A DNA stretch of 64,000 nt from an uncultured Acidobacteriaceae bacterium (GTDB taxonomy: Bacteria; Acidobacteriota; Terriglobia; Terriglobales; Acidobacteriaceae). Of this stretch, positions 531 through 50,848 are shown in pieces. A program made the translations under genes and the position numbers. The stretch is taken from NCBI GenBank assembly GCA_963697175.1, contig CAVONC010000028.1:19718-83717 (forward strand), written 5' to 3'. The notes beneath the pieces are model-generated. The model was not told where the DNA came from. It worked only from the letters and a program-made list of their open reading frames with translations, and searched no databases. Within the stretch, counting starts at the first letter, position 1. Each line of letters begins with the position of its first letter.

Positions 531-559
531 CCACTAGTCACTGGACCACTAGCCACTGC
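531..559 (+). repeat. period-7 tandem array, CCACTRG-like (4 units)
   Basis: The array ccactag tcactgg accactag ccactgc ends 5 nt before the M50 start codon. Confidence 0.6.
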
Positions 560-564
560 TTTCC

Positions 565-1560
565 ATGTCTGATCCCACGCGGCCAGTCTCCTACACCTTC
601 GAAGTATCTTCCTATCCACAGGTCTTTGTTGCGGCGCCCTCGTACCGTCGGCCCTACTGGCTGCATGCTCTTCTGCTGCTGTTGACGCTGTTCACCACCC
701 TGGTCGTCGGCGCTCGGCTGCAATTCAACTTCATCCACGGCCTGCCGGCTTTCACCACCGACACTTACACTCTGCCGCTATTCCCTATACGCTGGATCTG
801 GCAGAGTCCCGCACGCCTGCTGATGGGTCTGCCATTCTCGCTGACGCTGCTTGGCATACTGCTCGCGCACGAGTTCGGGCATTTCATCGTCGCAGAGCGG
901 AACGGCGTCTACGCTACTCTCCCCTACTTTGTCCCCGCGCCCACGCTGATCGGCACCTTCGGCGCGCTGATCCGAATCAAGTCGCCCATCCGCTCGCGCA
1001 AGGCGCTCTTCGATATCGGAATCGCCGGTCCCATCGCCGGCTTCCTGGTCGCGCTGCCCGTGCTCTTGTGGGGACTGGCGCTATCGAAGCCGATGCCTCC
1101 CGATGCATCAGCTTCGGGACTGGAGTTCGGCTATCCGCTGATCTTCAGCCTCTTCCATCGCGCTTTGGCGTCTTACACACACAGCACCGCACCGCTGGAT
1201 GCGCTCTATCTGCATCCTGTCGGCATCGCCGCCTGGGTGGGAATGTTCGCGACCGCTCTGAACCTTTTGCCTGGCGGTCAGTTTGATGGCGGCCACATCA
1301 TCTATGCAGTGTCACCGCGATCGCACAAGTGGGTCACGAGAACGACCATCGGCATCCTCATTCCGCTGGGAATCTTCTTCTGGATGGGCTGGCTGGTGTG
1401 GGCGCTGATCCTCACCTTCACCGGCATGAGGCATCCCAATGTTCCGCAGTGGCCCGACCTCGGTCGCGAACGGCGCTGGCTCGCCTTAGCCGCAGTGCTG
1501 ATGCTGGCGCTCACGCTGGTTCTCGCACCGTTCCACGGAGCCGCCTTGTTCGGCAGCTAG
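565..1560 (+). CDS. M50-family (site-2 protease-like) membrane metalloprotease
   Basis: 331-aa polytopic membrane ORF with the zinc motif HEFGH (LLAHEFGHFIVAE) and a later LNLLPGGQFDGGH segment, both typical of peptidase M50. Confidence 0.8.
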   Translation: MSDPTRPVSYTFEVSSYPQVFVAAPSYRRPYWLHALLLLLTLFTTLVVGARLQFNFIHGLPAFTTDTYTLPLFPIRWIWQSPARLLMGLPFSLTLLGILLAHEFGHFIVAERNGVYATLPYFVPAPTLIGTFGALIRIKSPIRSRKALFDIGIAGPIAGFLVALPVLLWGLALSKPMPPDASASGLEFGYPLIFSLFHRALASYTHSTAPLDALYLHPVGIAAWVGMFATALNLLPGGQFDGGHIIYAVSPRSHKWVTRTTIGILIPLGIFFWMGWLVWALILTFTGMRHPNVPQWPDLGRERRWLALAAVLMLALTLVLAPFHGAALFGS

Positions 1561-1594
1561 CGCAGTAGACCAACTCAACCGGCACTGATCGAGA

Positions 1595-1990
1595 TCAACC
1601 GCTGCTCTTCTGATGGCACTCAGCGCACTTCACTGGTGCTGCCTTCCCGCTGGCGTTCTGCTCCTTGTGGCAATCGATGCACAGACCGCTTGTGGCCGCA
1701 GCGTTGTGAAACGCCCCGCGCAAGCCAGTGGTCACCGGCGGAGTAGCTGGATTGGTGTGGCAATCGGTGCAGGCTTCCTGTGAAGACTTAAGCGGCTTCA
1801 GCGGTTTGGACGCATGATGGCAGACGACACACTTGGCCGCGACCTGGAGGTGGGAAGTGTGCTCGAACTTGACCGCGCCGATCGTTCCGTCCTTCAGAAC
1901 GATGGGATGTTGCGGCGGCTGCTGCGCGATCAGGTTAACGCAAGCGAGGAGAGTGGAAAGACACCAGCGCATTCCTGTCAGTGCTTTCAT
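1595..1990 (-). CDS. secreted tetrahaem c-type cytochrome (class III, c3/c7-like)
   Basis: 131 aa with an N-terminal signal peptide. Four CxxCH haem motifs (CVVCH, CTDCH, CIDCH, CAECH) lie within about 100 mature residues. Confidence 0.8.
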   Translation of the reverse strand: MKALTGMRWCLSTLLACVNLIAQQPPQHPIVLKDGTIGAVKFEHTSHLQVAAKCVVCHHASKPLKPLKSSQEACTDCHTNPATPPVTTGLRGAFHNAAATSGLCIDCHKEQNASGKAAPVKCAECHQKSSG

Positions 1991-2133
1991 GACAGCTCCG
2001 AAGACGGCGATGCTTCCGGATAGGGTCTCAACGACAGCTCACCTGGGACACCCCGATTCTAGGACTCGGCGGATTGGCTTTCAGTGATGGCCGCGCCAGT
2101 CTTCTGTGATGCGCGGACACGCGAGACGCCGCT

Positions 2134-3584: not shown

Positions 3585-3752
3585 TGAAACTTGAAACTCG
3601 AAACCTGAAACTCGAAACTGCCTTCTTGTGCCTTGGCCATGCAAATCCGGGCGGTGACGCGCGGCCGGGTTGCTCTGACAATCCGGGTTTTGAAACTTGA
3701 AACTCGAAACTCCGAAACTGCCTTTGAAACTCGAAACTCGAAACTTGAAACT
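3585..3752 (+). repeat. three blocks (3585-3619, 3691-3719, 3725-3752) of YGAAACT heptamer tandem repeats, 13 units, each block ending CTGCC
   Basis: Direct reading gives tgaaact tgaaact cgaaacc tgaaact cgaaact gcc; tgaaact tgaaact cgaaact ccgaaact gcc; tgaaact cgaaact cgaaact tgaaact gcc. Blocks 1 and 2 are each preceded by a TGCCTTGGnnATGCAArTCCGG module. Confidence 0.9.
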
Positions 3753-4682: not shown

Positions 4683-4784
4683 GGCTCGCGGTGGGTGGAG
4701 CACCGCTTTCCGAGCCGGCTTCACCGGTCGCTGAAAAAGTCGTCCTGCAACCGGTTCGTAACAGGGCACGACTTCAGTGCCTGG

Positions 4785-4939
4785 GTGAGAACTAGGTTTG
4801 CAAAATCGTGGTGGAGCGTCGCGATGGTTGAACAGCCAACAAACCAGCGCCTCGGGCGCGAAATAGGAAAGCCCAGCGCTTCAGCGCTGGGTAAGTGGTA
4901 AAAGGAGTCAGAGTCCCCCGGGGACGACACGGTTCTCAC
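4785..4939 (+). mobile_element. MITE-like ~150-bp element with terminal inverted repeats GTGAGAAC...GTTCTCAC (copy 1)
   Basis: It is about 85 percent identical by eye to 14366..14503. Shared stretches include caaaatcgtggtgga.cgtcgcga, accagcgcctcgggcgcgaaataggaaagcccagcgcttcagcgct.ggt.agtggt and tccccggggacgaca.ggttctcac. It has no coding capacity. Confidence 0.7.
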
Positions 4940-5024: not shown

Positions 5025-5135
5025 GTTTTGAAGGGGCGCAGCTTCAGCTGGCGCCGTTGCCAGTCTTTTGTTTTTGTCATCACGAGGAGGCCTTCAGGCC
5101 GACGAGGGATCTGCTTCTCGCCTTTTCAGCAGCCT
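5025..5135 (+). repeat. 111-bp dispersed repeat (copy 1) at the 3' side of the epimerase gene
   Basis: gttttgaaggggcgcagcttcagctg.cgccgttgccagtcttttgtttttgtcatc.cgaggagg..tt.ag.ccgacgagggatctgc...cagcagcct is nearly identical to 6024..6134. Confidence 0.85.
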
Positions 5136-6014
5136 ATTCCGCCGGCGGCACCGCGCACGTCCCTCATCGCCTCGTCCTCTGGCACAACTTCCCTGTATCC
5201 CAGCTCCGTGCGAATTCGCGCCGTGTCGTACGCAATGTCCTGCTCGAAATTGAACTTCGCATCCGCGTTGACCGGAATCTCCGACGGCGGCAGTTTCGCC
5301 AGTCCGTTCCGCAATCGTCGGCGTGTATTCCTCGCCGACGTTGTACGTCCTGCCGGCCGCTGCCGGATGCACCGCAGCCAGCACAATCGCCGCGGCCACG
5401 TTTTCTACATATCCGTGCGTCCATCGCCACTGCGGATGGTCGCGAAACGCGTAAACCGTCGCCAGATCGGAATTACTCTCGCGGCCGTAGACCTTCGGCA
5501 AGCGCAGAATCGTCGCCGGCAATTCGCGCTCGCTCGCCGCGATTCGCTCTACCAGAACCTTGTCATAGGTGTTGGCAATGTCGTCGGCAGCTTTCGCGTC
5601 GTCGCGATAGGGATACAGCACCGTTCGCAGCAGCGAGTCTTCCGTCAGCAACCCGGGCAGGACAGGCCCCGGCTCTGTTCCCGTGAATCGTCCATAAGCG
5701 AGATAGACATCGCCGCTGCTGATCCAAACCATCCGGCCCGTGTTGCCGCGAAAGAACTCGACAGCGGCCTGCGCATCAACTTCGCCCATCGCGACCATGT
5801 GGATCACAACGTCCGGCTGCGGCGTCAACAACTCCGCGGCAAAGCTGCGAACCAGCATCGACTCCTCGGTTCGCAGAACGTGCAGCACGCCTGCGGCAAG
5901 CTTGCTCTCGTATTTTCCGCGATGGTAGACAGTGACCGAGTGTCCGCTGTCGATAAGCTGGCGTACGACATACACGCCGATGAACCGTGTCCCGCCAATG
6001 ACCAGGATGTTCAT
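5126..6014 (-). pseudogene. NAD-dependent epimerase/dehydratase (SDR family), apparent frameshift near 5301-5310
   Basis: The N-terminus MNILVIGGTRFIGVYVVRQL is a Rossmann motif. The protein-like C-terminus (GLAKLPPSEIPVNADAKFNFEQDIAYDTARIRTELGYREVVPEDEAMRDV) lies in the frame of ORF 5126..5386. The tail of the original frame is Arg/Gly-rich nonsense running into a repeat element. Confidence 0.75.
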
Positions 6015-6023: not shown

Positions 6024-6134
6024 GTTTTGAAGGGGCGCAGCTTCAGCTGCGCCGTTGCCAGTCTTTTGTTTTTGTCATCCCGAGGAGGACTTTAGTCCGA
6101 CGAGGGATCTGCGGTTCGAGTCTCTCAGCAGCCT
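6024..6134 (+). repeat. 111-bp dispersed repeat (copy 2) at the 5' side of the epimerase gene
   Basis: It is a direct repeat of 5025..5135. Related shorter versions occur at about 14290-14345 and 18930-18990. Confidence 0.85.
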
Positions 6135-6893: not shown

Positions 6894-6921
6894 TGAAACA
6901 CGAAACTTGAAACTCGAAACT
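6894..6921 (+). repeat. YGAAACW heptamer array (4 units)
   Basis: The array reads tgaaaca cgaaact tgaaact cgaaact. It overlaps the polX stop codon (6920-6922) and lies 21 nt from the start of the next minus-strand gene. Confidence 0.85.
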
Positions 6922-8674
6922 ACTCCGCCACTGGCCACTGTTTCTTCATCGCCTTGCGAAATTCCTTCTCCGGCAGAGTATTCAGTACATCGGCCGGCGT
7001 CAGCCAAGCGCGCCGCGCCTGGAGAATTCCATACTTCACCTTCTCGAAGTGCGACGTATGGTGCGCATCGGTGTTGATCACAATCTTCACTCCACGCTCG
7101 CGCGCCATGCGCAGATGCACATCGTTCAAGTCGAGCCGATCAGGATAGGCATTCAGCTCCATCGCAACTTGATTCCTAAGCGCCGACTTCAGCACCGCAT
7201 CCATGTCGAAGCGATAAGCGTCGCGCCGCAACAGCAACCTTCCCGTTGGATGCCCCAGGATCGACACATTCTTGTCATCCAGCGCGCGCAGCAGGCGATC
7301 GGTCATCTGTTGTGGCTCCTGATTGAATGCCGAATGCACGCTGGCGACGACCACATCCAACTGCTCCAGCACCGAATCCGACAGGTCAAGCTCGCCATCG
7401 CTCAGAATGTCGACCTCAACTCCAGCCATGATGGTGATGCCGTCGATCTGCTTGTCCGCCGCACGAATGCGCGCCATGTGTTCAACCGCGCGCTTGTCGT
7501 CCAAGCCATTGGCGAAAGCGAGATTCTTCGAGTGATCGGTAATCGCGATGTACTTGTAGCCGCGCTCTTTCGCCGCCTCCGCCATCTCCTCGATGGTGCA
7601 CTTACCGTCGGTCTCAACGGTATGCATGTGAACTTCGCCGCGAAGGTCCTTCAGCGTGATCAGCCGGGGAAGCTTATGTTCAGCGGCTAAGTCGATCTCG
7701 CCGCAGTTCTCGCGCATCTCGGGAGGAATGCAGTCGAGCTTGAGCGCGCCGTAAATCTCGTCTTCAGTGGCTCCAGCGATACGCTTTTCATTGTCCAGCC
7801 GAAACAGCCCGTACTCACTGAGCGTATATCCCATCTTCAGCGCGCGCTGCCGCAGCGTCACGTTGTGGTTCTTCGATCCCGTGAAGTACTGCATTGCCGC
7901 GCCGTAGGATTCCGGCGGCAACAGGCGCACATCAACTTGCATGCCGCTGCGCAACTTGAAGCTGACCTTGTTATCGCCTTTCGCCAGCACTTGCGTAATC
8001 CCCGGGAAACGCAAAATCTCTTCGATCAGCTCAGCCCTTTTCTGATCGTCCAAGCAACACGGTCCGGTGATCAGCACATCGAGATCGCCAACGGTTTCGC
8101 GGCCGCGTCGCAGCGACCCGGCAGGCGTGATCTTCTCGATGCCCTTGATGTGCTTCAGATGTTCCGTCAGCTTCTCCGCCGTGCGGTCGGCTTCGTCCAG
8201 CAGAAAGCGTCCGGAGATGCGGCGATAGTCCTCGATCGCCTTCAAGATTTTCTGCTCGCTCTTTTCGCTCAGCCGCGGCAGCTCGCGCAGCTTGCCTTCG
8301 CGCGCCAGCTGTTCGACGCCGGCAAGGTCGCTCACCTGAAAGGCGCTCCAGATGAGCGCAATCGTCTTCGGCCCCAGTCCCTGAATCTTCAGCAGCTCCA
8401 ACATGCTGGGCCGATATTTCTGCAGCAGTTCCTGATGCAGTCCAAGCTTTCCGTCGCGGCATAGCTCCTGGATGTTGCCCGCCATTCCTTTTCCGATGCC
8501 GGGAATCTCCAACAACTTCTTGGGCTCGTCGGTGAGTCCGCAAACCTGTTGGTGATGCGCTTCCAGCGCCTCCGCGGCGCGACGGTAGGAGCGGATGCGA
8601 AAAGAGTCGTCGCCGTTGACCTCCATCAGGTCGGCGGTTTCGTACAGGACTTGCGCGATGGCCTTATTTTCCAA
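6920..8674 (-). CDS. polX: DNA polymerase/3'-5' exonuclease PolX (Pol-beta-like domain + PHP domain)
   Basis: 584 aa. The N-terminal region has HhH and nucleotidyltransferase features (GIGKGMAGNIQEL, GSLRRGRETVGDLDVLI). The C-terminal domain is PHP-type (VHMHTVETDG ... IVINTDAHH). Confidence 0.9.
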   Translation of the reverse strand: MENKAIAQVLYETADLMEVNGDDSFRIRSYRRAAEALEAHHQQVCGLTDEPKKLLEIPGIGKGMAGNIQELCRDGKLGLHQELLQKYRPSMLELLKIQGLGPKTIALIWSAFQVSDLAGVEQLAREGKLRELPRLSEKSEQKILKAIEDYRRISGRFLLDEADRTAEKLTEHLKHIKGIEKITPAGSLRRGRETVGDLDVLITGPCCLDDQKRAELIEEILRFPGITQVLAKGDNKVSFKLRSGMQVDVRLLPPESYGAAMQYFTGSKNHNVTLRQRALKMGYTLSEYGLFRLDNEKRIAGATEDEIYGALKLDCIPPEMRENCGEIDLAAEHKLPRLITLKDLRGEVHMHTVETDGKCTIEEMAEAAKERGYKYIAITDHSKNLAFANGLDDKRAVEHMARIRAADKQIDGITIMAGVEVDILSDGELDLSDSVLEQLDVVVASVHSAFNQEPQQMTDRLLRALDDKNVSILGHPTGRLLLRRDAYRFDMDAVLKSALRNQVAMELNAYPDRLDLNDVHLRMARERGVKIVINTDAHHTSHFEKVKYGILQARRAWLTPADVLNTLPEKEFRKAMKKQWPVAE

Positions 8675-11251: not shown

Positions 11252-12182
11252 AGCGAAGGCGCGTGAGTTGCTCAAGAGTTTTGAAGGTGAAGGTGTCATC
11301 CCGAGCCAAGGCGGGTCGGTTTTGGCCGCTGAAGTCGGGGCCCTCTACGATAGTCTGCGCGACTTCCTGCTGCGCCCAGTGCGCGTAGCTCCCACGCTGA
11401 TGAAGTACGCCGAGCCGAATGCCTACGAGATCGAGACTCGGCGCGAACTGAGAGCGGCAGCCACGGAATTACTAGCGCCGATTGCGATTGGCGACGCGCC
11501 GACCGTGGATCTGCTGGACGACGATCCGCTGGAGATCGAACTGGCGGCCACGCTGCTTGTATCAACATTCGCACCATTCGTATCGCCAGATTCGCGAAGT
11601 CGTCAGCGGACTTTGCCCGAATCACGGCGTAACGAGATCATCGACCTCGGCCTGCGTCACCGCGGTCGCCATGACGAAGTCTTGCGGCCTTTCTGCGCCG
11701 GACAGCAGTTTCGCTTCGACATCCTGATGGATATCGGCGGCTTTCGCGATATGCATCGCCATCGCCGCTGCGTGCAGATCGTGCAGGATTACACCACGGC
11801 GCACGGACACGATATGCCGGTCGAGATCGAGTCCGCCGGCCTCGCTGATCGCTACCAATCTGCGTTGGAGCGCGCCAGACAAACTGCAACTCGACTCGCC
11901 AGCCGTTCGGTGAGCGAAGCCCTCGTTGGTCAGCCCGCGACTGAGACGGAAGCTCAGTCGCAATATGTCATCCCGCTGGCCTTCCGCAAACGCACCCTCT
12001 TCAAGATGGACTTTGCCGAGGCGCTTTATATCAGCGAACTGCGGACCGGCGCAGCCGGACACTTCTCCTATCGCAACGTGGCCTTCGCAATGTACGAAGC
12101 CGTGGCCCAGCGATATCCCGCGCTGGCAAAATACTTCCGTGTAACCGACGTACGCGAGCCGGTGGATTTACTGAAACGATAG
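11238..12182 (+). CDS. FAD-dependent thymidylate synthase ThyX-like protein (RHRR-containing domain)
   Basis: GGFRDMHRHRRCVQ carries the ThyX RHR signature. ATG 11238 overlaps the end of the previous ORF. The pair may be one gene split by a 1-nt indel. Confidence 0.6.
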   Translation: MTSTEAKARELLKSFEGEGVIPSQGGSVLAAEVGALYDSLRDFLLRPVRVAPTLMKYAEPNAYEIETRRELRAAATELLAPIAIGDAPTVDLLDDDPLEIELAATLLVSTFAPFVSPDSRSRQRTLPESRRNEIIDLGLRHRGRHDEVLRPFCAGQQFRFDILMDIGGFRDMHRHRRCVQIVQDYTTAHGHDMPVEIESAGLADRYQSALERARQTATRLASRSVSEALVGQPATETEAQSQYVIPLAFRKRTLFKMDFAEALYISELRTGAAGHFSYRNVAFAMYEAVAQRYPALAKYFRVTDVREPVDLLKR

Positions 12183-12205
12183 CCGGCAATGGAGCAATTC
12201 TGACA

Positions 12206-12730
12206 ATGAAATCTCGGAACATAACTGTCGTCGGGGTTGTCATGCTGTGCTTCAGCCTGACATCTGTTGCAGCTGCGCAGGCATCATCTCCGGCTCAAAC
12301 GCCTGGCAAAAAGGGGGCGATGGTGACGGGTCATGCAACCGGAACATTCGAGGTAAAGATGATTCCGCAGACCGCGGATGAGCAAGCACAGGCTGCGGGT
12401 ATCGGGCGGATGGCCTTCGACAAACAGTGGCACGGCGATCTTACTGGCACCAGCAAAGGCGAGATGTTGGCCTTTGGCACCGGCGCGAAGGGATCATCGG
12501 GTGCCTATGTCGCCATGGAGCAGTTCACCGGAACGCTGGCCGGCCATAGCGGCGGCTTCGTCCTGCAACAAGCGGGGACCATGACTCGTGGCGTGCCGAA
12601 ACTGACCATCAGCGTGGTCCCGGACTCGGGCACGGGACAACTGGTGGGCCTGACCGGCACGATGAATATCATCATCGCCGACGGAAAACATTCCTACGAC
12701 TTTGAGTACACGCTGCCCGAAAGCCATTGA
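12206..12730 (+). CDS. DUF3224 family secreted protein
   Basis: A signal peptide is followed by GTFEVKMIPQ...WHGDLTGTSKGEMLAF...YVAMEQFTGTLAGHSGGFVLQQAGTM...VVPDSGTGQLVGLTGTM...HSYDFEYTL. Confidence 0.65.
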   Translation: MKSRNITVVGVVMLCFSLTSVAAAQASSPAQTPGKKGAMVTGHATGTFEVKMIPQTADEQAQAAGIGRMAFDKQWHGDLTGTSKGEMLAFGTGAKGSSGAYVAMEQFTGTLAGHSGGFVLQQAGTMTRGVPKLTISVVPDSGTGQLVGLTGTMNIIIADGKHSYDFEYTLPESH

Positions 12731-14207: not shown

Positions 14208-14365
14208 GCATTGTCCAGACCGATCCGGGGCGCGTTCGAGGCGCAGCCTTCGCTCTAGCCGTTCGCTGAAAACTCTGTGCAGTGCCTTGCTCGGGTAGTG
14301 CGGCGCTTCAGCGCCGCGTTCAACTGCTTTATTCTTGTCATCCCGACGAGGACTTTAGTGTCTGC

Positions 14366-14503
14366 GTGAGAACTGAGTTTACAAAATCGTGGTGGAACGT
14401 CGCGAACGTTAGCCACCCAACCAGCGCCTCGGGCGCGAAATAGGAAAGCCCAGCGCTTCAGCGCTAGGTGAGTGGTCAGTCCCCGGGACGACAGGGTTCT
14501 CAC
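14366..14503 (+). mobile_element. MITE-like element with GTGAGAAC...GTTCTCAC termini (copy 2)
   Basis: Same family and orientation as 4785..4939. It lies in the recA-coaD intergenic region. Confidence 0.7.
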
Positions 14504-34804: not shown

Positions 34805-34819
34805 TGAAAAGATTCCGAT

Positions 34820-37356: not shown

Positions 37357-37365
37357 GTCTGACTA

Positions 37366-37437
37366 GTTCCTCAGCGGCAAAAGCCGCAGTCATTTTGCGG
37401 CATCAACGGACGGCCTGAAGGGCGTCCCCTTCAAAGA
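37366..37437 (+). repeat. 72-bp REP family: GTTCCTCAGCGGC.AAAGCCGCAGTCATTTTGCGGCAT.AACGGACGGCCTGAAGG.CGTCCCCTTCAAAGA (copy 1)
   Basis: It is nearly identical to 43021..43092, and a partial copy occurs at 49027..49079. It contains two hairpins. Confidence 0.85.
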
Positions 37438-37444
37438 CAACGGC

Positions 37445-38365
37445 TTAATCAGCGCCTCTCTGGCGTCTGCGATTCGACGTTGCTGCACCTTCCGCGCTCT
37501 TGAGTTCTCTCTCCAACAGCTTGCGGTTTCTCACGGGCAGAAAATTGAGTGAAGCGCGAGCCAGCGCGACGTAGACGGCTCTGGCTTCGGGCAGGTTCAG
37601 GAGCTCCGCCAGATGCTTGCGCACGGTTGCCACGTCTCCGCGGACGAGCGGTCCGCTGAAGGCCGAGGCAGCTTCCTGCTGCAAGTAATTGCGAAGCGTC
37701 TGCGACAGCAGTGGCTCCATCACACGTTTGATTTCGGATTGACGAATGCCGGCCGCGCGAGCCACCTCCTCGAGCGATGCCATCAGCGCAATCACCATCG
37801 GCGAAGCGAAGCTGCCGAAGACGTGATACAGCACCTTGTTCTGCTTCTTGATGACGAACGATCTACCGCCGAGATCCTCGACGATGGATCTTGCCATCCG
37901 CACTGCGCCCGCGTCACCCTCGACAGCGAACGAGATGCCAGCCATTTCTGGCACCGCGCTGCGCACGAACGTCATCATGGGATGAACCGAGGCGACGCGT
38001 GCGCCCTTCGCTCGCAGAGGCGACAACTCGTCGCTGGTGAGCGCGCCACTGGAGTGAAAGACGGTCTTACCTTTCCAATCCTGTGAGGACGCCAGAAGGC
38101 TCGCTACGCTCGCGATTGCATCGTCAGGGACGGTGATCCAGACCACGTCGGTTGGCAGAGGCTTGCCCACGTCGATGACCCGCGCATGTATCTTGCGCCC
38201 CAGAGCTTTGACATGAGCTCGCTTGTGACGTGCCACGAGGAACTGCACTTGATAGCCTGCGCGAGGCAAGAGTCAACGCCAGGGCAGTGCCGAGATTCCC
38301 TGGACCGACGATGCTGATCGACGGGACGGGCTTTGGATGGCGATGGCTTGGCCACGGCGGGCAGA
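37445..38365 (-). pseudogene. Rossmann-fold DUF2520 domain protein, two apparent frameshifts in the 5' end (about 38262-38272 and 38318-38326); start uncertain
   Basis: The body (HSSGALTSDELSPLRAKGARVASVHPMMTF...LYHVFGSFASPMVIAL...GPLVRGDVATVRKHL) is DUF2520-like. The dinucleotide-binding SISIVGPGNLGTALALTLA lies in a second frame, and a possible N-terminus (VAKPSPSKARPV) lies in a third. Confidence 0.65.
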
Positions 38366-40718: not shown

Positions 40719-40734
40719 TTACACAAGAGAGTCT

Positions 40735-40811
40735 TTCACCACGGAAACACGGAAAGCACGGAGTGCAAGAGAACAGGATCATTTCTGTGTATTCCGTGCT
40801 TCCGTGGTGAA
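40735..40811. repeat. inverted repeat built from CACGGAA/TTCCGTG heptamers
   Basis: The arms are ttcaccacggaaacacggaaagcacggag and attccgtgcttccgtggtgaa. It lies between the M28 peptidase and fur. Confidence 0.75.
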
Positions 40812-40883
40812 ACTCGCATTCCCGGGGCGAGTATTATGCTGATAGCAATTTGGGCGCGACGTAATTGAGATCCCGGGGAGCAG

Positions 40884-41590: not shown

Positions 41591-42943
41591 ATGCCCACTC
41601 TCACCGAAGCAGCGGAACAGATTCGCAGCCGCCGTTTGTCTCCTGTCGAACTGACGCGCGAGTGTCTGGCGCGCATTGAGCGACTCAATCCGGATCTCAA
41701 CGCATTTATCACGGTTACTGCCGAGCAAGCTCTGGAATCGGCACGTCAAGCCGAGTCCGAGATCAGCGCCGGCAACTATCGCGGACCGCTGCACGGCATT
41801 CCAATTGGCCTTAAGGATCTGTTCGACACTGCCGGCGTACGCACTACGGCGGCGAGCAATCAGTATCGCGATCGCGTGCCAACAGAGGATGCCGAGGTTG
41901 TGCGGCGCTTGAGGCAGGCGGGCGCCGTGATCGTGGGCAAGCTCAACATGCACGAATTTGCTTTCGGAATGAGCGGCGTGGTCAGTGCTTTTGGGCCGGT
42001 GCGGAATCCGTGGAATCGGGAACGCATTACTGGCGGATCATCGTCCGGTTCGGCGGCTGCGGTTGCGGCGGGACTTTGCTTGGCGGCGTTGGGAAGCGAC
42101 ACATCAGGATCGATTCGGTGCCCTCCGGCATTGTGTGGAATTGTTGGACACCGCCCGAGCGCGGGCTTGGTCAGTACCAAGGGAGTCGTGCCGCTGTCGA
42201 CGTCGTTCGACACGGTCGGGCCGATGACAAGCACAGTGCGCGACGCGGCGATGTTGTTGGATGTTCTAGTGGGTCAGTCGAGCTACGCGTCGGTGTTGGA
42301 AGAGGATGTGTCGCGGCTGAGGGTCGGGGTTGCTCGCAAGAACTTCTTCGACGATCGTGGATCCCGATGTCGCGGCCTGCGTGGAAGCTGCATTGGGCGT
42401 GGTGAAGAAGTTAGTGGCTGAGGTTCACGACGTGGAAGTGCCCGTCGACGGCTTCCGCACGATTTTTGACGCGGAGATTTATGAGTATCACGAAGGGATG
42501 ATCACCGACCATCCAGAGCGGTACCAGCCGCTTACGTTATTCCGGCTGCAGAAGTGTGCCGGCATCAACGCCACCGACTACATCCGCACGCGTCATCAAC
42601 TGGAGGCTCACCGTGCGAAGGCGGAGAGAATCTTCGAGGCTGTAGATGTGGTGGTCACGCCGACAACGCCGTCACCTGCTCCCAAGATTGCTGATCTGGA
42701 GGCGCTGCCTATCGCGGATGTGCGACCGTTCGAAATGAAACATCTCATGCGGAATACTCTGCCGTTCAGCGCGCTGTATTGGCCGAGCTGTCGGTGCCAT
42801 GCGGATTTACCCGCGATGGGCTGCCGGTGGGAATGCAGATTTCGAGCCGGCCGGGTGGGGATTCGACTTGCCTGCGGCTGGGTTATGCGTATGAGCGCGA
42901 GACGGGGTGGAACGAGCATAAGCCACCGATGGCGCGACTATAG
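41591..42943 (+). pseudogene. amidase (amidase-signature family, GatA-like), two apparent frameshifts (about 42352-42358 and 42783-42790)
   Basis: The start is ATG 41591. It has GIPIGLKDLFDTAG and GGSSSGSAAAVAAG...GSDTSGSIRCPPALCG. Later segments continue in other frames (VDPDVAACVEAAL..., then ELSVPCGFTRDGLPVGMQISSRPGGD...). The stop is TAG 42941-42943. Confidence 0.85.
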
Positions 42944-43000: not shown

Positions 43001-43020
43001 ATTGAAGAAACTCTGAGTAA

Positions 43021-43092
43021 GTTCCTCAGCGGCTAAAGCCGCAGTCATTTTGCGGCATTAACGGACGGCCTGAAGGCCGTCCCCTTCAAAGA
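43021..43092 (+). repeat. 72-bp REP family (copy 2)
   Basis: See 37366..37437. It lies downstream of the amidase gene. Confidence 0.85.
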
Positions 43093-43157
43093 TAACGACT
43101 CAGTCAAAGCCTCCTGAGTAGTTGGCGCGCCTTGCAAATTGACAGTGGTGCCCTTCG

Positions 43158-43210
43158 GCGAAAAGCGAAAAGCGATCCGCGAGAAGAGATGGGCGAAGAG
43201 CGGCCAGCGG
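43158..43210 (+). repeat. period-7 tandem array GCGANNN (7.5 units)
   Basis: The array reads gcgaaaa gcgaaaa gcgatcc gcgagaa gagatgg gcgaaga gcggcca gcgg. It abuts the murB stop (43214). Confidence 0.8.
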
Positions 43211-43213: not shown

Positions 43214-44267
43214 TCAAAATCCTACGAAGACCGGCTCCGGGTCGAGCGCGATATCGAATTTCTCCATTACGCAAGCCTGGATTTCATCTTTTAGCGCGAT
43301 GATCTCGGCTGCGGTTGCGCCCCCGCGGTTGATGATCGCCAACGCGTGTCGTGCGCGAGATGCCGGCGTGCCCTTTGATGTATCCCTTGGTGAAGCCGGC
43401 GTGCTCCACCAGCCACGCTGCCGGCAACTTGCGGAGGCCGTCGGCTGCTGGATAACTCGGCAGCTGCAACTCGGCGCTCAAGAGCCGCGCAGAGAGTTGC
43501 TCAAAGAAAGTGTGCGGCACGATGGGATTCTTGAAGAACGATCCCACACTGTGGGAGTCTTCATCGCCGGGAACGATGAGCATGGCCTTGCGGCGGCGAA
43601 TCTCTCGGACGGCGTCTCTTACCTCGGCCAGCGTCGGCTCATTCGAACGGGCCGGCGAAAAATTGTTGCAGATCGGCGTAACGGAGCAGTTGGTTTGCCG
43701 CCCTGCCGGAGCGCAAACGAGACGCGCAGGATGATGTATCTTCCGCGTTCGCTGGTATTGAAGATGCTGGAGCGATAGGCGAAGCCGCACTCTGCATTCG
43801 ACAGGGTTTTCACCTCCATCGACTGCAGATCAAGCACGCGCACTTCCTGGATCGTGTCGGAGACTTCCTGGCCATAAGCGCCGACGTTTTGCACGGGCGT
43901 GCCGCCGACGGTGCCGGGAATTCCACTCAGGCATTCCAGGCCAGCGCAATCCGCCTCGACCGTCTCCTGCGACGAGTGCGTCCCAGTCGTACCCCGCGCC
44001 GGTGACGAAGGTCACGATGCCATGTGGCGCCGTGGAAACTGCGAAGTCGCTGATCGCGATCTTCAGCACCAGCCCGGCAAATCCTGTGTCCGCGATTACG
44101 ACATTGCTGCCGCCACCGAGTACGAAGAGCGGCAGCGCGCGCGAGCGGGCGAACTCGACGGCTTCGATGACGTCGGATTCCGTCGACGCTTCGGTAAAAT
44201 AGCGCGCTGGGCCGCCGACGCCGAGGGTCGTGAGAGGAGCCAGGGGGGCGTGTTCACGGATGAGCAT
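43214..44267 (-). pseudogene. murB: UDP-N-acetylenolpyruvoylglucosamine reductase MurB, at least four apparent frameshifts
   Basis: The fragments MLIREHAPLAPLTTLGVGGPARYF...VLGGGSNVV, ...GTPVQNVGAYGQEVSDTI...CGFAYRSSIF, ...EVRDAVREIRRRKAML...SVGSFFKNP and ...HALAIINRGGATAAEIIALKDEIQ...DPEPVFVGF-stop lie in alternating frames. The breaks are near 43970, 43700, 43650 and 43353. Confidence 0.85.
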
Positions 44268-44394
44268 CGCGTTGGAAACATAGTAATTGGAATGCGACGG
44301 GATTGCCTCGTCTTAGCCGCCCGTGGTGACAGAGGAGAGTTCTTGAAATCGGTCCCTCTGGGGCTAAAGCCCCGCTGATATTTGTGGGCTTTAC

Positions 44395-44423
44395 GGCACG
44401 GCTGAAGCCGTGCCCCTTCAAAA
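44395..44423 (+). repeat. REP hairpin GGCACGGCTGAAGCCGTGCC-CCTTCAAAA
   Basis: The same module occurs at 19033-19060, 45693-45721 (ggcacgactaaagtcgtgccccttcaaaa), 55119-55138, and inverted at 18901-18928. Confidence 0.8.
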
Positions 44424-45591: not shown

Positions 45592-45724
45592 GTTTGAAAG
45601 GTTAGCGCTTTAAGAGGCTGCTGAAAAACTCTGACCTGCCCGGTTTGTGCCGCCGGCTGAAGCCGGCTCGGGCGAGAAATAAACGACTGGTCGGCACGAC
45701 TAAAGTCGTGCCCCTTCAAAAATT

Positions 45725-47513
45725 ATGGCTCATCCTAAGATCATCGTTGTGGGTGGCGGACTGGCGGGACTCGCCGCGACCATCAAGATTGCCGAGATGG
45801 GAGGTCACGTCGACCTCTTCTCCATCGTTCCGGTCAAGCGGTCTCACTCGGTGTGCGCGCAGGGCGGCATCAACGCCGCCAAGAACCTGAAGGGTGAAGG
45901 CGACTCCACCTGGATCCACTTCGACGACACCGTCTACGGCGGCGATTTCCTGGCGAACCAGCCGCCGGTGAAGGCAATGTGCGATGCGGCACCCGGCGTC
46001 ATCGACCTTCTCGATCGCATGGGCGTTCCCTTCAATCGCACGCCGGAAGGATTGCTGGATTTCCGCCGGTTTCGGCGGCACGCTCTACAACCGCACCGCC
46101 TTTGCCGGCGCGACCACAGGCCAACAACTGTTGTACGCGCTGGACGAGCAGGTGCGGCGCTACGAATCCGAAGGCAAGGTTAAGAAGTACGAAGCGTGGG
46201 AGTTCCTCTCGGCGGTCATCGACGAGAATCGTGTCTGCCACGGCATCTGCGCGCTGGACCTTCGCGGCATGGGAGTTCACACCTTTCCGGCGGAAGCCGT
46301 CATCATGGCGACCGGCGGCAACGGCGCCATCTTCGGCAAATCCACCAACTCGGTGGTGTGTACGGGATCGGCGCAATCGGCGCTGTATCAGCAGGGCGCG
46401 TTTTACGCCAACGGTGAATTCATCCAGGTGCATCCGACGTGCATTCCCGGCGAAGACAAGCTGCGGCTGATGTCGGAGTCGGCGCGCGGCGAGGGCGGCC
46501 GCGTTTGGGTGCCAAGACAGCCGAGTGACAAGCGCGATCCCAAGAGCATTCCGGAGAGTGAGCGCTGGTACTTCCTGGAAGAGTGGTATCCGAAGTACGG
46601 CAACCTGGTGCCGCGTGACATCGCGACTCGCGCTATTCACAAGGTTGTCTACGAGCACAACCTGGGCATCGACGGCCAGCCGATGGTCTACCTCGACCTG
46701 ACGCACATCGATCGCAAGACTCTTGATCGCAAGCTGGAAGGCATTCTGGAGATCTACGAGAAATTTGTCGGCGACGATCCGCGCGATACGCCGATGAAGA
46801 TCTTCCCCGGCATGCACTACACCATGGGCGGCCTGTGGGTGGACTTCGAGCAGCGGACGAACATCGAAGGGCTGTACGCCGCGGGCGAGTGCGACTACTC
46901 GATTCACGGCGCCAACCGGTTGGGCGCGAACTCGCTGTTGTCGTGCATCTATGGCGGATTTATCGCTGGGCCGCACTCGGTGAAATATGCGCACGGCATG
47001 ATCAAGAGCGGAAAACATCCCGGCCAGCACGTCTTCGACTCCGAACGGAAGCGGCAGGAAGAAATTAACGCTCGCCTGATGAAGAACGATGGCACGGAGA
47101 ATCCGTTCCTGCTGTGGCGCGAGTTGGGTGACACCATGACCAAGAACGTCACGGTCATTCGCTACAACAAGAATATTCAGGAGACCGATGCGAAGCTGGT
47201 CGAGTTGCTGGAGCGCTACACGCATGTGAATCTCAGCGACAAGTCAATGTGGGCGAATACGTCGTTCGTCTTTGCGCGGCAGCTCTACAACATGCTGCAA
47301 CTGGCGCGCGTGATCGCACAGGGCGCGGCGATGCGCGATGAGTCGCGTGGGGCGCATTACAAGCCGGACTTCCCGGAGCGTGACGATGCGAACTGGTTGA
47401 AGACGACGAAGGCATACTTTGCGGCGGACGCCGACGAGCCGCGCTTCGAGTTCGAGCCGGTGGACACGTCGCTGATCAAGCCGCGGCCGAGACGGTACGA
47501 CGCGGCGACGTAG
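45725..47513 (+). pseudogene. sdhA: succinate dehydrogenase flavoprotein subunit, apparent 1-nt insertion at 46070-46072 (TT to TTT)
   Basis: It has IIVVGGGLAGLAA (FAD) and HSVCAQGGINA. LLDFRRF is followed in the next frame by GGTLYNRTAFAGATTGQQLLYALDEQ. MSESARGEGGRVW is also present. Confidence 0.9.
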
Positions 47514-47517: not shown

Positions 47518-47543
47518 AGTTTCAGTTTCAGTTTCGAGTTTCA
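47518..47543 (-). repeat. AGTTTCN array (reverse complement of the YGAAACT family), preceded by GGC
   Basis: The array ggc agtttc agtttc agtttcg agtttca lies 5 nt after the sdhA stop. Confidence 0.85.
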
Positions 47544-47569: not shown

Positions 47570-47604
47570 GCGAAGAGCGAACAGCGAATAGCGATAAGCG
47601 AACA
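47570..47604 (+). repeat. period-7 tandem array GCGANNA (5 units) running into the sdhB start codon
   Basis: The array reads gcgaaga gcgaaca gcgaata gcgataa gcgaac-ATG. Confidence 0.8.
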
Positions 47605-48355
47605 TGGCAAATTCTAAAACCGTACTCATAAAGATCAAGCGGCAGGACACTCCCGAGTCGAAACCGTACTGGGAGGAGTTCGAACTGCAGTTTCGTCCGG
47701 GGATGAACGTGACCTCGGCGCTGATGGATATCGCCGCCAATCCGGTGACCAAGCAGGGCAAGCCGACGACGCCGGTCACCTACGATTCCAACTGCCTGGA
47801 AGAGGTGTGCGGCTCGTGCGCCATGATCATCAACGGGCAGGCGAAGATGGCGTGTTCGACGCTGATCCATCAATTGAAGCAGCCGATCACGCTGGAGCCG
47901 TTCTCCAAGTTCCCGGTGGTGCGCGATCTGGCGGTCGATCGCAGCGTGCTGTTCGAGAATCTGAAGAAGGTGAAAGCGTGGGTCCCGGTGGACGGCACCT
48001 ACGATCTCGGCGCCGGCCTGCGCCAGATGTCGCAGGAGCAGGAAGAGGCCTATCCGCTGTCGCGCTGCATTTCGTGCTGCTGCTGCATGGAAGCGTGTCC
48101 GCAGTTCAACGAGAAGACCGGATTCGTCGGCGCGGCCACCATCTCGCAGGTGCGGCTGTTTAATTCGCATCCCACGGGCAAAGGCTGAAGATCGAGCGCC
48201 TGCAAGCGTTGATGGGCGAAGGCGGCATCCAGGAATGCGGCTACGCGCAGAACTGCGTCGAAGTCTGCCCCAAGGAAATTCCGCTGACCAAGTCGATCGC
48301 CGATGTAGGCGGGCAAGTGATGTGGCAGGCGGTGAAGGACTTCTTCCGGTCGTAA
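47604..48355 (+). pseudogene. sdhB: succinate dehydrogenase iron-sulfur subunit, apparent frameshift near 48178-48188
   Basis: It has CLEEVCGSCAMIINGQ and CISCCCCMEACPQF. After HPTGK the conserved end LKIERLQALMGEGGIQECGYAQNCVEVCPKEIPLTKSI... continues in another frame to TAA 48353-48355. Confidence 0.9.
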
Positions 48356-48359: not shown

Positions 48360-48390
48360 GCTGTCAGCTGTCGGCTCTGAGCTGTCGGCT
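48360..48390 (+). repeat. period-7 tandem array GCTGTCN (4.5 units)
   Basis: The array gctgtca gctgtcg gctctga gctgtcg gct lies directly after the sdhB stop. Confidence 0.75.
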
Positions 48391-48405
48391 AAAGCGAAAT
48401 TTAAA

Positions 48406-48433
48406 AGCTCGGATTCCGATCCGAGCTTTTGTT
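48406..48433. terminator. bidirectional rho-independent terminator between sdhB and the convergent DinB-family gene
   Basis: The 9-bp stem is agctcggat / atccgagct and the loop is tccg. AAAA lies on the left and TTTGTTT on the right. Confidence 0.75.
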
Positions 48434-48465
48434 TGGCTTCAGAGTCGTGTGAACGGGGTTGTCGT

Positions 48466-48966
48466 CTAACCTTCCAGGACCTTGCGGATCTGCTCCATGT
48501 GGTTGAGATCGTGGCCGGCGATGAGCTGTACCAGGTCGCGGACGGTCAGGCGGCCGCGTTCCGCGTGCATGCCATAGTGCTCCCACTGCTCGGGAGTGAG
48601 GCGATCGAACACACGCAGATTGTTCTCGCGCAGCATGCGAAAGAGTTGCAGCGAATCGGCCGGCGTACGCGAAGGGTAATCTCCCAACTTGTTCCACATT
48701 TCCTGGTCGTAGGGCGAGAGCGGGCAGCCATTCTGCTCGACCATCTGGCGATAGCGCCAGGAGTTGACGATCTCAGCCTCGGCGAGATGCGCGATCACCT
48801 CGCCGATCGACCACTTGGCGGGATCGGGACGCTGGTACAGTTTGCTGTCGGAAACGCCGACGATCAATTGCGCCAGCGCGGCCGGCGTTTGGCGCTGGAC
48901 TTCGATTGGGTCTTTGCCTTCCACGAAGGACAGGATGCGAGCTTTGTATACGTCGGCAGTTGCCAC
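48466..48966 (-). CDS. DinB-family protein
   Basis: 166 aa. WSIGEVIAHLAEAE ... LIAGHDLNHMEQI is the His-triad four-helix-bundle pattern of the DinB superfamily. Confidence 0.7.
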   Translation of the reverse strand: MATADVYKARILSFVEGKDPIEVQRQTPAALAQLIVGVSDSKLYQRPDPAKWSIGEVIAHLAEAEIVNSWRYRQMVEQNGCPLSPYDQEMWNKLGDYPSRTPADSLQLFRMLRENNLRVFDRLTPEQWEHYGMHAERGRLTVRDLVQLIAGHDLNHMEQIRKVLEG

Positions 48967-49442
48967 AAAAGCCTCCAGGAAGTCGATCGGTAAAGAGTTT
49001 AGGAAACTCTGATTAAGTTCCAGCGGCTAAAGCCGCAATAATTTTGCTGAGCTTACGGACGGCCTGAAGAGAGTGTGTCGCGGCCCGTGCCGCCGCTCCG
49101 CGGCTCGAACCGCAGATCCCTCGGTCGGGCTGAAGCCCTCGGTCGGGATGACAAAAAAAAGAGCCGGAACGTTGGCCTGAAGGCCGTCCCCTTCAAGGCT
49201 CAAGTCCGTCCCCGTCACAACTGAAGTCCGTCCCCTCAAGGCTAAAGTCCGTACCCTTCACAGCCGGAAGATTGTTCCCTTCAGACCCGGACTTTAGCAG
49301 AGTCTTCTTGGCCGTTCCATCTGAACAGCGCGAGAAGGCCACTATGGGCGTTCGACGTGGATCGGCGATAGTCGTGAGCGCCGCCCGCATCATTTACAAT
49401 CCAAGCGCAGCCAATTTTCTGCTGGAGCTGGCGATCCGCCTG

Positions 49443-50727
49443 ATGAGACGTACTTATCGATTCGTTCTGTTCGTTCTCTGTTCCGCCGCGATAGCTTTCA
49501 CACAAACTGCGCCTTCAACGCAATCAACGGGGACGGCCAAGGGTGGCGACCCGCTCACCCCGGAACAGGCTCTCGCGGTCCACAACTCGGCGATCATTAT
49601 CGACACGCACGCTGACACGCCGGGGCGATTCGTCGATGAGAACTTCGATCTGGCGCAGGATGCCGGGCACGGGCTATCTCGACTTCAACAAGATCAAGGC
49701 GGGCAATCTGGGCGCGGAATTCTTTTCCATCTGGGTTGAGCCGAAGGCGTTCAAAGGCAACGAAGCCAAGCGCGCGCTGGACATGATCGACTCGGTGTAC
49801 GAGCAGGCGCGGCGGCATCCCGACAAGATGATGATGGCGTACGGCACCCACGACATCATTGTGGCGCATCGCGAGCACAAGCTGGCGGCGCTGCTGGGCG
49901 TCGAGGGCGGGCACGCGATCGAGGGCGACATCCGAATCCTGCGCGATTATTACCGGCTGGGCGTGCGTTACATGACGCTGACGTGGTCGAACACCAACGA
50001 CATTGGCGACTCCAGCGGCGACATGACCGACCAGAACATTCAGCATCACGGCGGGCTCACTCCGTTTGGGCGCGAGGTGGTGACGGAGATGAACCGGATG
50101 GGGATGATGGTCGACATCTCGCACGTTGCCGATTCGACGTTCTACCAGGCGCTGGAGCTGAGCAAGGCGCCGGTGATTGCGTCGCACTCGTCGTCGCGCG
50201 CGCTGACTAACGCGCCGCGCAATATGACCGACGACATGCTGAAGGCGCTGGCGGCGAAGAACGGCGTGGCGCAGGTGAATTACTATTGCGCGTTCGTTTC
50301 GCAGAAGTATCTGGACACGGCGAAGCAGCTGGGGGCGCAACACGATCCGGATTATGAGGCGGTGCAGGCGCTGTTCATCAAGCCACAGACGCCGGAGGTG
50401 GTGAAGCAGTTGGCGGAGGCGAAGGCAAAGCTGGCGCCGAAGCTGCCGCGGCCGCCGCTCAGCGATCTGATAGATCACATCGACCATATGGTGAAGGTTG
50501 CGGGCGTGGATCATGTGGGACTGGGATCGGATTTCGATGGCATTGATTGCTCGCCGCAGGGGCTGGATTCGGCGGCCGATCTGCCGAAGATCACGGAAGC
50601 GCTCTCCCAGCGCGGATATTCGGCGGCCGATCTTGATAAGATTCTTGGCGGAAATCTGTTGAGAGTGTTTGGAGAAGTGGAGAAGGTGTCGAGGGAAATG
50701 CAGAAGGCGGGGACTGGGGGATCGTGA
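49443..50727 (+). pseudogene. membrane dipeptidase (peptidase M19), apparent 1-nt insertion at 49665-49667 (GG to GGG)
   Basis: ATG 49443 precedes a signal peptide. It has IIIDTHADTP. DLAQDAG is followed in the next frame by TGYLDFNKIKAGNLGAEFFSIW. GVEGGHAIEG, MTLTWSNTN, DISHV and ASHSSSRAL are also present. Confidence 0.85.
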
Positions 50728-50775
50728 ATCGTTGATCGTGAATCGTTGATCGTGGATGGTGAATCGTGGGGCGTG
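50720..50775 (+). repeat. period-7 tandem array NNNCGTG (8 units)
   Basis: The array reads gatcgtg aatcgtt gatcgtg aatcgtt gatcgtg gatggtg aatcgtg gggcgtg and spans the dipeptidase stop codon. Confidence 0.85.
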
Positions 50776-50815
50776 AGACTCAGTGCAATCAGTCGCCAGT
50801 GACGATACACCGATT

Positions 50816-50848
50816 GACGAGCCACGAATCACGAGCCACGAGCCACGG
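50816..50848 (+). repeat. period-7 tandem array CACGANN (4.5 units), roughly complementary to 50720..50775
   Basis: The array gacgagc cacgaat cacgagc cacgagc cacgg ends 14 nt before the cyclophilin ATG. Confidence 0.85.

Follow-up and report, generated by a model that had tools for sequence, protein, structure and literature searches.

The intergenic DNA of a 64,000-nt stretch from an uncultured Acidobacteriaceae bacterium (contig CAVONC010000028.1, positions 19,718 to 83,717, assembly GCA_963697175.1; hereafter the window) carries many short tandem arrays that have unrelated cores and mostly share a period of 7 nt. We consider it likely that these arrays are heptanucleotide simple sequence repeats (SSRs) that are driven by slippage and shaped locally by selection into mRNA hairpins. 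They represent a new lineage for a known, still unexplained class of bacterial repeats and not a new kind of element, and our confidence in any specific function of the arrays is much lower than our confidence in this class assignment.

Period-7 arrays in the window

Periods were detected with Tandem Repeats Finder (TRF) and with a lag-autocorrelation, in which a segment had to match at no fewer than 17 (strict cut-off) or 15 (looser cut-off) of 21 positions at lag p, and Markov-1 shuffles served as the null. At the strict cut-off the window holds 6 segments at p=7, 4 at p=14 and 0-1 at each of the other periods between 2 and 15, the few other-period segments being a GGC coding tract (33038-33100), while the shuffles gave 0.0 period-7 segments. 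Lowering the cut-off to 15/21 resulted in 8 period-7 segments against 0.87 expected, and over the looser cut-offs as a whole 7-8 such segments were found where 0.2-0.9 were expected. TRF and the autocorrelation agree, TRF arrays are present at all loci named in an initial annotation of this DNA (Table 1), and TRF frequently reports higher-order repeats with lengths of 14, 21 and 34 nt.

The initial annotation was right in describing many arrays with unrelated cores and one 7-nt period beside gene boundaries. It had also called all of the arrays strictly heptameric, which is correct for most of them but not for the two CACGGAR loci (8-9 nt), the array at 531-559 (7/8 nt) or that at 47518-47543 (6/6/7/7 nt); by direct reading, nine arrays are in 7-nt register, another two mix periods, and the CACGGAR loci are of period 8. 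The array at 48360-48390 is weak as a period-7 array and falls under the 15/21 cut-off.

Taken singly, the arrays at 531-559 and 48360-48390 do not stand out from chance, and frameshifts split sdhB (48184-48209), an amidase gene (42330-42421) and murB (43214-44267), both of which would suit an explanation of the arrays as chance patterns or as sequencing and assembly artefacts of a long-read metagenome-assembled genome (MAG). The splits are probably indel errors of the long-read assembly rather than pseudogenes; RNA contigs from relatives carry one additional base at 48184/48185 compared with the window. For the arrays themselves we give the artefact or chance explanation next to no credence, as it is effectively refuted by the shuffles, with 0 strong period-7 segments against the 6 seen, and by similar arrays at orthologous sites in dozens of independent assemblies made by differing methods; arrays are also present in RNA-derived contigs.

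Relatives' loci and other phyla

The SdhA protein encoded in the window (45984-47513) is 96-97% identical to proteins of uncultured Acidobacteriaceae and Korobacteraceae MAGs, and the GC content of the window is 57-62%. The source of the window is a Korobacteraceae-like MAG of the Terriglobales. No public run contained the complete window sequence, the highest word share being 0.40, in soil metagenomes, and public metagenome contigs are short and end at arrays. For comparison we used the loci of the 80 best-matching relatives by SdhA (1.445 Mb, or 1.51 Mb together with the window), which are labelled Acidobacteriota, mostly Terriglobales, except for two with other labels. A second sample consisted of at least 119 loci of about 8 kb that were matched by a GCTGANN x4 pattern in a scan of the collection. 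The wider statements in this text rest on these retrieved loci (80 from relatives and 119 selected by pattern). Genes were called with a home-made codon log-odds model, which assigned 81% of the DNA as coding.

The 80 relatives' loci contain 35 period-7 and 22 period-14 segments, compared with 0-15 at other periods. When the window is included, 37 of the period-7 arrays are intergenic and 4 are coding, while the intergenic arrays at p=4, 5, 8, 10, 11 and 13 number 1, 0, 5, 1, 1 and 1, and arrays with periods of 3, 6, 9 and 18 are mostly coding. The excess of period 7 over other periods is thus seen in the window, where it also holds against shuffles, and at the relatives' loci. Per 100 kb there are 9.4 period-7 arrays in the window, 6.2 in the closest clade (SdhA identity of 89% or more) and 1.5 in more distant Terriglobales, and a control of two 50-kb regions of E. 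coli K-12 (100 kb in total) gave 0.

Among the matches listed for the GCTGANN x4 pattern are many Acidobacteriota, as well as Chloroflexota, Planctomycetota, Verrucomicrobiota, Poribacteria, Nostoc and Okeania. In the 8-kb loci of these matches, a further 126 period-7 arrays have other cores, compared with 1-20 arrays at other periods. Since pattern-matched loci of several phyla carry such further arrays, the occurrence of many cores with a single period is a trait of whole lineages in several phyla, and the arrays are not confined to the window.

Position of the arrays and structure of their units

When arrays were compared with a uniform placement within the same spacer, 28 of 62 were found at most 5 nt from a called gene boundary, where 7.0 were expected. 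Stops account for 19 of these (4.0 expected), seven of the 19 being one orthologous sdhA site and therefore non-independent, and starts for the other 9 (3.0 expected). The bias is repeated in loci from many phyla: in the pattern-selected, independent sample there are 4.55 arrays per nt within +/-5 nt of the ends of open reading frames (ORFs) of at least 150 codons and about 0.9 per nt at a distance of 16-100 nt. Arrays without a stop codon in any sense frame show an equal peak, with 18 within +/-5 nt of ORF ends, from which we conclude that the pile-up at stops is not produced by stop codons that the arrays themselves contribute. The proximity to start and stop codons noted in the initial annotation therefore stands.

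That annotation had furthermore described a core of 4-5 nt as constant in each array and the remaining positions as variable, which finds statistical support in the number of invariant unit columns. Over 58 arrays this number was 243, compared with 215.5 +/- 4.2 under random placement of the substitutions (none of 500 simulations reached 243), and with unique unit variants only it was 237 compared with 207 +/- 4.7. The substitutions cluster in few, mostly adjacent unit columns. Columns with three or more letters showed no significant enrichment (45 vs 39.5), and part of the signal of core constancy may for this reason come from units descending from one another.

Strand-specific units, T-rich after stops and A-rich before starts, are striking in the sdhA-sdhB spacers, but were rejected as a general feature, the AT skew being about 0 in independent loci; GCTGANN alone favoured the sense strand 2:1 when located ahead of starts (51 vs 26 among the matches listed, with crude ORF calls). 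A role of the arrays as replacements for Shine-Dalgarno (SD) motifs was likewise rejected: an SD-like motif precedes only about 31% of the called genes at these loci, for which the start calls are rough, and 6 of 16 array-adjacent genes, which is no difference.

Turnover of the arrays in orthologous spacers

An array begins about 4 nt past the sdhA stop in the window and in all of the relatives' loci L001-L013, and its unit differs among them, being AGTTTCN, CAGTTGY, CAGTGGC, CAGGGGC or GTTTCRA. At the other end of the same spacer a purine-rich array runs into the sdhB ATG in nearly all of the relatives L001-L018, down to 81% SdhA identity, with units of GCGAANA, GCTAANA or GCTGANN that are homogenised within each array and number from about 4 to 26 among orthologues. 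No SD motif was found ahead of sdhB in the window or at the sdhB starts of L001-L018, and the sdhB leader always ends in A-rich units of GCGAAAA or GCTAAAA type (...GCGAAAATG). In relatives, the stretch between the two arrays has received insertions of other small repeats. The longest array by far was seen in L003, where 26 GCTGAGA/GCTAAGA units precede sdhB (12043-12224) and where insertions of several small hairpin elements have extended the sdhA-sdhB spacer to 807 nt.

The nearest relatives do not share the arrays that follow sdhB and precede fur, and arrays are thus gained and lost between close relatives. The GCTGTCN array of the window is not conserved in the relatives' post-sdhB spacers, and the hairpin at 40734-40812 upstream of fur is missing from L001 and L002, one arm of it being kept in L004. 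Collectively, the arrays behave in a satellite-like manner: they are locally persistent and homogenised within each array, and turn over quickly between lineages.

Variation in copy number between relatives, together with the location of several arrays in leaders or in a divergent promoter region (47570-47604 and 3585-3752), could point to contingency loci, in which the number of units in a promoter or leader switches the neighbouring genes by phase variation as in Haemophilus and Neisseria. We find this very improbable, as most of the arrays are located after stops or in housekeeping operons (sdhCAB, the ABC transporter) and not by surface or restriction genes, and the units are imperfect, which lowers slippage rates.

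Hairpins and transcription

Three loci of the window fold far better than their shuffled counterparts. The near-perfect hairpin upstream of fur, with arms of 29 bp, has a minimum free energy (MFE) of -42.9 kcal/mol over 40730-40815 (z -7.6), and none of 200 shuffles was as stable. At 34665-34810 the MFE is -48.7 kcal/mol (z -2.7), and the arrays at 50720-50775 and 50816-50848 are the 5' and 3' arms of one long hairpin, for which the MFE of the region 50715-50855 is -59.2 kcal/mol (z -3.1). Solo arrays are unstructured, with z values from -1 to +1.2, as exemplified by the YGAAACT region at 3585-3619 (z -1.0), the region 6894-6921 (z +1.0) and the GCGANNN array at 43158-43210 (z 0.0). Two further cases are weaker: the GCTGTCN array is partly self-pairing (MFE -15.3 kcal/mol, z -1.7), and the CCACTRG array at 531-559 is complementary to CAGTGNN-like units at 424-450, directly past the stop of the HU gene (421-423), so that these arms close the MFE fold of the 141-nt spacer between HU and the M50 peptidase gene, although the z value of the spacer is only -0.9. 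A search of Rfam 15 at gathering score gave no match over any of the window arrays.

The hairpin between the dipeptidase and cyclophilin genes, which reaches from the stop codon to just before the GGAGGA motif, is found in the window and in L001, L002, L005, L007 and L012. The corresponding spacer of L036 folds too, but this locus is distant (60% dipeptidase identity) and its arrays stop short of the SD motif. The units of the arms vary by locus, being CGUG/CACG, AGUGGC/GCCACU or UAGGGG/CCCCUA, and the mean pairing energy of cognate arms is -32.1 kcal/mol compared with -20.2 kcal/mol for non-cognate arms, a cognate value that only 22 of 5040 permutations reach. The two arms of this stem co-vary between relatives. 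A general pairing between the array after the stop and the array before the start was rejected for the sdhA-sdhB spacer, since pairing there exceeds that of the shuffles in L001 (z about -5) and L002 (z about -2.4) only.

In two wetland metatranscriptome runs, contigs extend from sdhA through 305 other letters into sdhB, as would fit a relative with a spacer like that of L001, and a separate loose end of RNA beginning at the sdhA stop reads a CAGTTGY array, AAAGAGCAGTTGTCAGTTGCC... Since these contigs span sdhA, the spacer and sdhB, arrays belong to the operon transcript in a relative, with DNA carry-over a possibility in such libraries.

The inverted arrays could alternatively be regarded as arms, and the other arrays as leftover arms, of small mobile cassettes akin to the intervening sequences of 23S rRNA (PF05635), where a four-helix-bundle gene lies in an inverted-repeat stem, and where ORF-less hairpins and solo arrays would be decayed copies. 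In L137, a Blastocatellia MAG, a PF05635 gene (E = 1e-40) is indeed positioned exactly between inverted TCAGCNN (2181-2216) and GCTGANN (2630-2662) arrays, and in L179 a PF05635 homologue has arrays on both sides (1582-2142), apparently direct ones. However, both loci had been chosen for their GCTGANN arrays, which makes the association non-independent; no PF05635 was found among ten small ORFs of the window scanned against Pfam, and tblastn with the L137 protein found nothing in either the window or the 80 Terriglobales loci. Other pairs of inverted arrays have ordinary genes between them (xseB, a PilZ gene and rplM), each site has units of its own, as copies of a single mobile element would not, and orthologous arrays evolve in place. 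We therefore hold an origin from such cassettes to be quite improbable.

A different proposal would have the arrays serve as landing pads, to be bound by an abundant protein with affinity for single-stranded RNA or DNA, of the cold-shock-domain or small RRM kind, whose footprint of about 7 nt would set the period, each protein reading a core of 4-5 nt with a loose specificity that would account for the differing cores. It would agree with the conserved core and the 2-3 variable, mostly contiguous positions of the units, which have statistical support, with the transcription of arrays in the metatranscriptome of a relative, and with the observation that B. subtilis CspB binds heptamer repeats, one protein per heptamer (MacGregor 2015, PMC4679880). 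RRM domains typically bind 5-8 nt, and a small RRM protein is encoded in the window at 32774-33115 (RRM_1 match, E = 1.4e-23), with a glycine-rich tail that comes from the GGC tract mentioned above. We take this protein to be of the cyanobacterial/Bacteroides Rbp type of single-strand RNA binder. Proteins combining an RRM with a glycine-rich part are used by cyanobacteria, a classic heptamer-array lineage, and a link between the window protein and the arrays is pure speculation. A single reader seems, however, unlikely in view of the very diverse cores (GAAAC, GCGA, CGTG, CCACT, GCTGA, CAGTTG and others). Moreover, independent loci show no general strand bias of the units with respect to transcription, many arrays are tied up in hairpins and hence not single-stranded, and the column clustering could come from shared descent of the units, and on balance we regard landing pads as unlikely.

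Relation to known heptamer repeats

According to the initial annotation, the short tandemly repeated repetitive (STRR) sequences of heterocystous cyanobacteria were the only comparable class, and arrays of this kind would be unusual in a non-cyanobacterial genome. Neither claim can be upheld, as heptamer arrays are known in many bacteria (PMC4679880, PMC4692102, PMC2700814) and our own scan has, among the matches listed, multi-core arrays in Chloroflexota, Planctomycetota, Verrucomicrobiota, cyanobacteria and many Acidobacteriota. Multi-core heptamer arrays have been described in Xanthomonas, Nostoc, Microcystis, Beggiatoaceae, some Bacteroidetes and Geobacter (PMC4679880, PMC4692102, PMC2700814), and as summarised in two later papers (PMC4679880, PMC4692102), Mrazek et al. 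2007 reported heptanucleotide repeats as the most abundant long SSRs in most of the genomes surveyed. In a literature search no paper was found on such arrays in Acidobacteria.

Like the STRRs of Calothrix, Nostoc and Anabaena, the arrays described here consist of tandem 7-nt units, with several unrelated units per genome, and are intergenic and lineage-wide; unlike them, they are shorter (4-8 units), more degenerate (a 4-5-nt core plus variable positions) and belong to Acidobacteriota. The classical STRR1-3 units are CCCCAGT, TTGGTCA and CAACAGT, none of which occurs as an array unit in the window. With the SSRs of Mrazek et al. 2007, as far as these are summarised (PMC4679880, PMC4692102), the arrays share an excess of period 7 over other non-triplet periods, a non-coding location and a proposed origin by slippage, while the pile-up at stop codons and the co-varying inverted arms are features of the present arrays that those summaries do not describe.

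The GGGAATC and GGGGA(C/T)T repeats are similar in other respects. These intergenic G-rich heptamers of Xanthomonas and Nostoc are often found between the same gene pairs in related strains, with variable length and sequence and some inverted pairs able to form stem-loops, and their distances to starts and stops have been analysed (Rehm et al. 2015, PMC4692102). They differ from our arrays in being capable of forming G-quadruplexes and in having one dominant unit family, as opposed to many cores that are mostly without G-runs; a run of G3-G4 per unit is absent from the window units and occurs in units of L109, L118 and L149. The TAACTGA repeats of marine Beggiatoaceae, some cyanobacteria and Bacteroidetes are also intergenic direct copies (2-6 or more), often just upstream of starts, for which a translational role has been suggested, and mixed heptamer assemblages have been reported from Microcystis and Bacteroidetes (MacGregor 2015, PMC4679880). 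There, however, a single dominant unit is spread over distant taxa, whereas the units here are diverse and the strongest bias is found just after stops. Geobacter metallireducens, finally, has four to five tandem heptamers around its genome (GGACCGG x4 at 49 sites and MTYCTGA x5 at 15 sites), annotated as putative regulatory elements (PMC2700814). Those elements are dispersed, with one consensus per family and some copies within genes, in contrast to the arrays here, which have their own unit at each site.

Stable stem-loops in transcribed spacers just past stops are also known from the repetitive extragenic palindromes and bacterial interspersed mosaic elements (REP/BIME) of enterobacteria, which are built from one imperfect palindrome and tied to REP-associated tyrosine transposases (RAYT). 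By analogy the hairpin arrays may act like REP/BIME, without being members, as their local heptamers differ from site to site, and the many dispersed copies of one palindrome that characterise REP/BIME are not found among the window arrays.

The window does contain a separate REP-like family, GGCACGGCTGAAGCCGTGCC..CCTTCAAA, with the consensus GGCACGGC-TGAA-GCCGTGCC followed by CCTTCAAA and at least 7 copies (Table 1). A 22-nt tandem version of its hairpin is located at 49177-49263, and larger common modules are found at 37365-37458 and 43020-43113. The depth of metagenome contigs is 10-100 times higher at the REP-like copies, which indicates that this element is abundant in soil communities. 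Among other repeated modules, one of about 105 nt is present at 5025-5131 and 6024-6129, 998 nt apart and 94-100% identical, flanking a gene (5094-6014), with a third, partial copy at 14328-14359 and 14505-14544. The only Rfam matches in the window are two to Acido-Lenti-1 (4846-4891 and 14423-14468, minus strand; 47.1 and 41.4 bits, gathering score 37), and both are contained in copies of an intergenic module of roughly 130 nt that is duplicated in the window (4770-4899 and 14351-14476).

Table 1 Tandem arrays and REP-like copies in the window, with their units, detection and immediate surroundings.
Feature	Position	Strand	Units and detection	Surroundings
CCACTRG array	531-559	+	~4 units, mixed 7/8 nt; TRF score 33, individually weak	ends 5 nt ahead of the ATG (565) of an M50 peptidase gene (Pfam)
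YGAAACT array	3585-3619	+	5 units; TRF, direct reading, autocorrelation	spacer separating a VIT-family gene (start 3494, -) from a divergently oriented, unannotated gene (start ~3840, +)
YGAAACT, two sub-arrays	3690-3752	+	3690-3717 and 3724-3752, 4 units each, one 8-nt unit	each followed by GCC; 34-nt higher-order duplication (TRF, 2 copies, 91% matches)
AGTTTCR array (sense strand; YGAAACT as listed)	6894-6921	-	4 units; TRF, autocorrelation	first unit holds the TAG stop of a PolX/PHP gene (6920-8674); next gene starts at 6873; two CAGTGGC units just upstream, within the PolX 3' end
CACGGAG/CTCCGTG inverted arms	34669-34804	+	period 8, not 7 (TRF period 8)	begins at an ABC-permease stop (34668-34670), ends 16 nt ahead of ATG 34820, likely the start of an OpuAC binding-protein gene judging from the ORF list and an apparent frameshift
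CACGGAA/TTCCGTG inverted arms	40734-40812	+	8-9-nt units (TRF period 8); arms 86% complementary	begins 16 nt past the stop of an M28 peptidase gene, upstream of fur
GCGANNN array	43158-43210	-	7.5 units, strict 7-nt register; TRF, autocorrelation	4 nt beyond the murB stop (43214-43216, minus strand); murB frameshifted in the assembly
AGTTTC(N) array	47518-47543	+	AGTTTC AGTTTC AGTTTCG AGTTTCA, units of 6/6/7/7 nt; TRF period 6	begins 4 nt past the sdhA stop (47511-47513)
GCGANNA array	47570-47604	+	5 units; TRF, autocorrelation	runs into the sdhB ATG (47604)
GCTGTCN array	48360-48390	+	4.4 units, weak (TRF score 34)	5 nt past the sdhB stop (48353-48355), just ahead of a terminator-like hairpin and T-run (~48403-48434)
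NNNCGTG array	50720-50775	+	8 units, 14-/21-nt higher order; TRF period 14, 100% matches	first unit holds the TGA stop (50725-50727) of an M19 dipeptidase gene
CACGANN array	50816-50848	+	4.7 units; TRF, autocorrelation	ends just ahead of a GGAGGA Shine-Dalgarno motif and the cyclophilin ATG (50863)
REP-like copy	18907-18936			
REP-like copy	19031-19060			
REP-like copy	37406-37435			
REP-like copy	43061-43090			
REP-like copy	44393-44422			
REP-like copy	45691-45720			
REP-like copy	55117-55146			

Discussion

Above we described arrays that alter as 7-nt units, or multiples of 14, 21 and 34 nt, are gained and lost, that are nearly absent from coding DNA and that pile up at stop codons and, less strongly, at start codons. 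Since unit-wise change and higher-order copies are the signature of slipped-strand mispairing, this process would be what generates the arrays, and the missing strand asymmetry in independent loci fits such an origin at the DNA level. A period that is not a multiple of 3 would be purged from genes, because each slip of 7 nt shifts the reading frame. In the spacers, selection would then keep complementary arms where they form an intercistronic stem resembling those of REP/BIME, which could hinder 3' exonucleases and possibly serve to couple translation, and elsewhere it would retain no units but those that suit the site, as in the A-rich leaders of GCGAANA type, which are poor in structure, ahead of sdhB with its missing SD motif. 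Solo arrays are probably near-neutral filler that renews itself.

The initial annotation had suggested a common generating or selecting mechanism, which is a fair inference given the period excess, the spread beyond the window and the boundary bias that were all found. Two of the mechanisms it offered, slippage and RNA structure, have evidence here in the unit-wise change and in the hairpins, respectively.

Several points weigh against slippage followed by local selection. Slippage alone gives no reason for a period of 7 over 5, 8, 10 or 11; slippage at a polymerase-related length is the proposal of Mrazek et al. 2007, as given in later summaries (PMC4679880, PMC4692102). Slippage furthermore adds units inside an array and leaves its edge in place, and by itself does not explain why the arrays start flush with stops. 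The concentration of substitutions in few unit columns and the persistence of the post-sdhA array across 89-97% SdhA identity both suggest some constraint beyond neutral slippage. A function of the hairpins is suggested by folding energies alone, and the window's own sdhA-sdhB spacer is unstructured (z +1.2). The boundary counts include several orthologous, non-independent sdh sites and depend on home-made gene calls. Finally, the short metagenome contigs break at the arrays, and within-population copy-number polymorphism, the direct signature of slippage, is not visible there.

A bolder explanation, which we consider improbable, is that the paired arrays form a selected, register-tolerant ("slippery") stem device extending from the stop codon to the ribosome-binding site, with the 7-nt period set by a trans factor specific to the lineage. 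Such a stem could be melted from its base by a terminating ribosome, and the arms would stay complementary while their sequence drifts. A candidate for the trans factor would be a single-strand binder of the small RRM or cold-shock type whose footprint is 7 nt, for instance the RRM-glycine-rich protein at 32774-33115. If true, a trans factor would explain why whole lineages have or lack heptamer arrays with many cores.

Heptamer arrays have been known since 1990 without either a mechanism for their period or a function. To this class, in which slippage and local selection remain our preferred explanation for the present arrays, the window adds a lineage of soil Acidobacteriota with a high density of arrays. 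It also adds three quantitative handles: a roughly five-fold pile-up at stop codons, seen in the clade and in other phyla, the retention of an array in orthologous spacers while its unit and copy number change, and a hairpin from stop codon to ribosome-binding site that inverted arrays maintain as whole arms co-vary.

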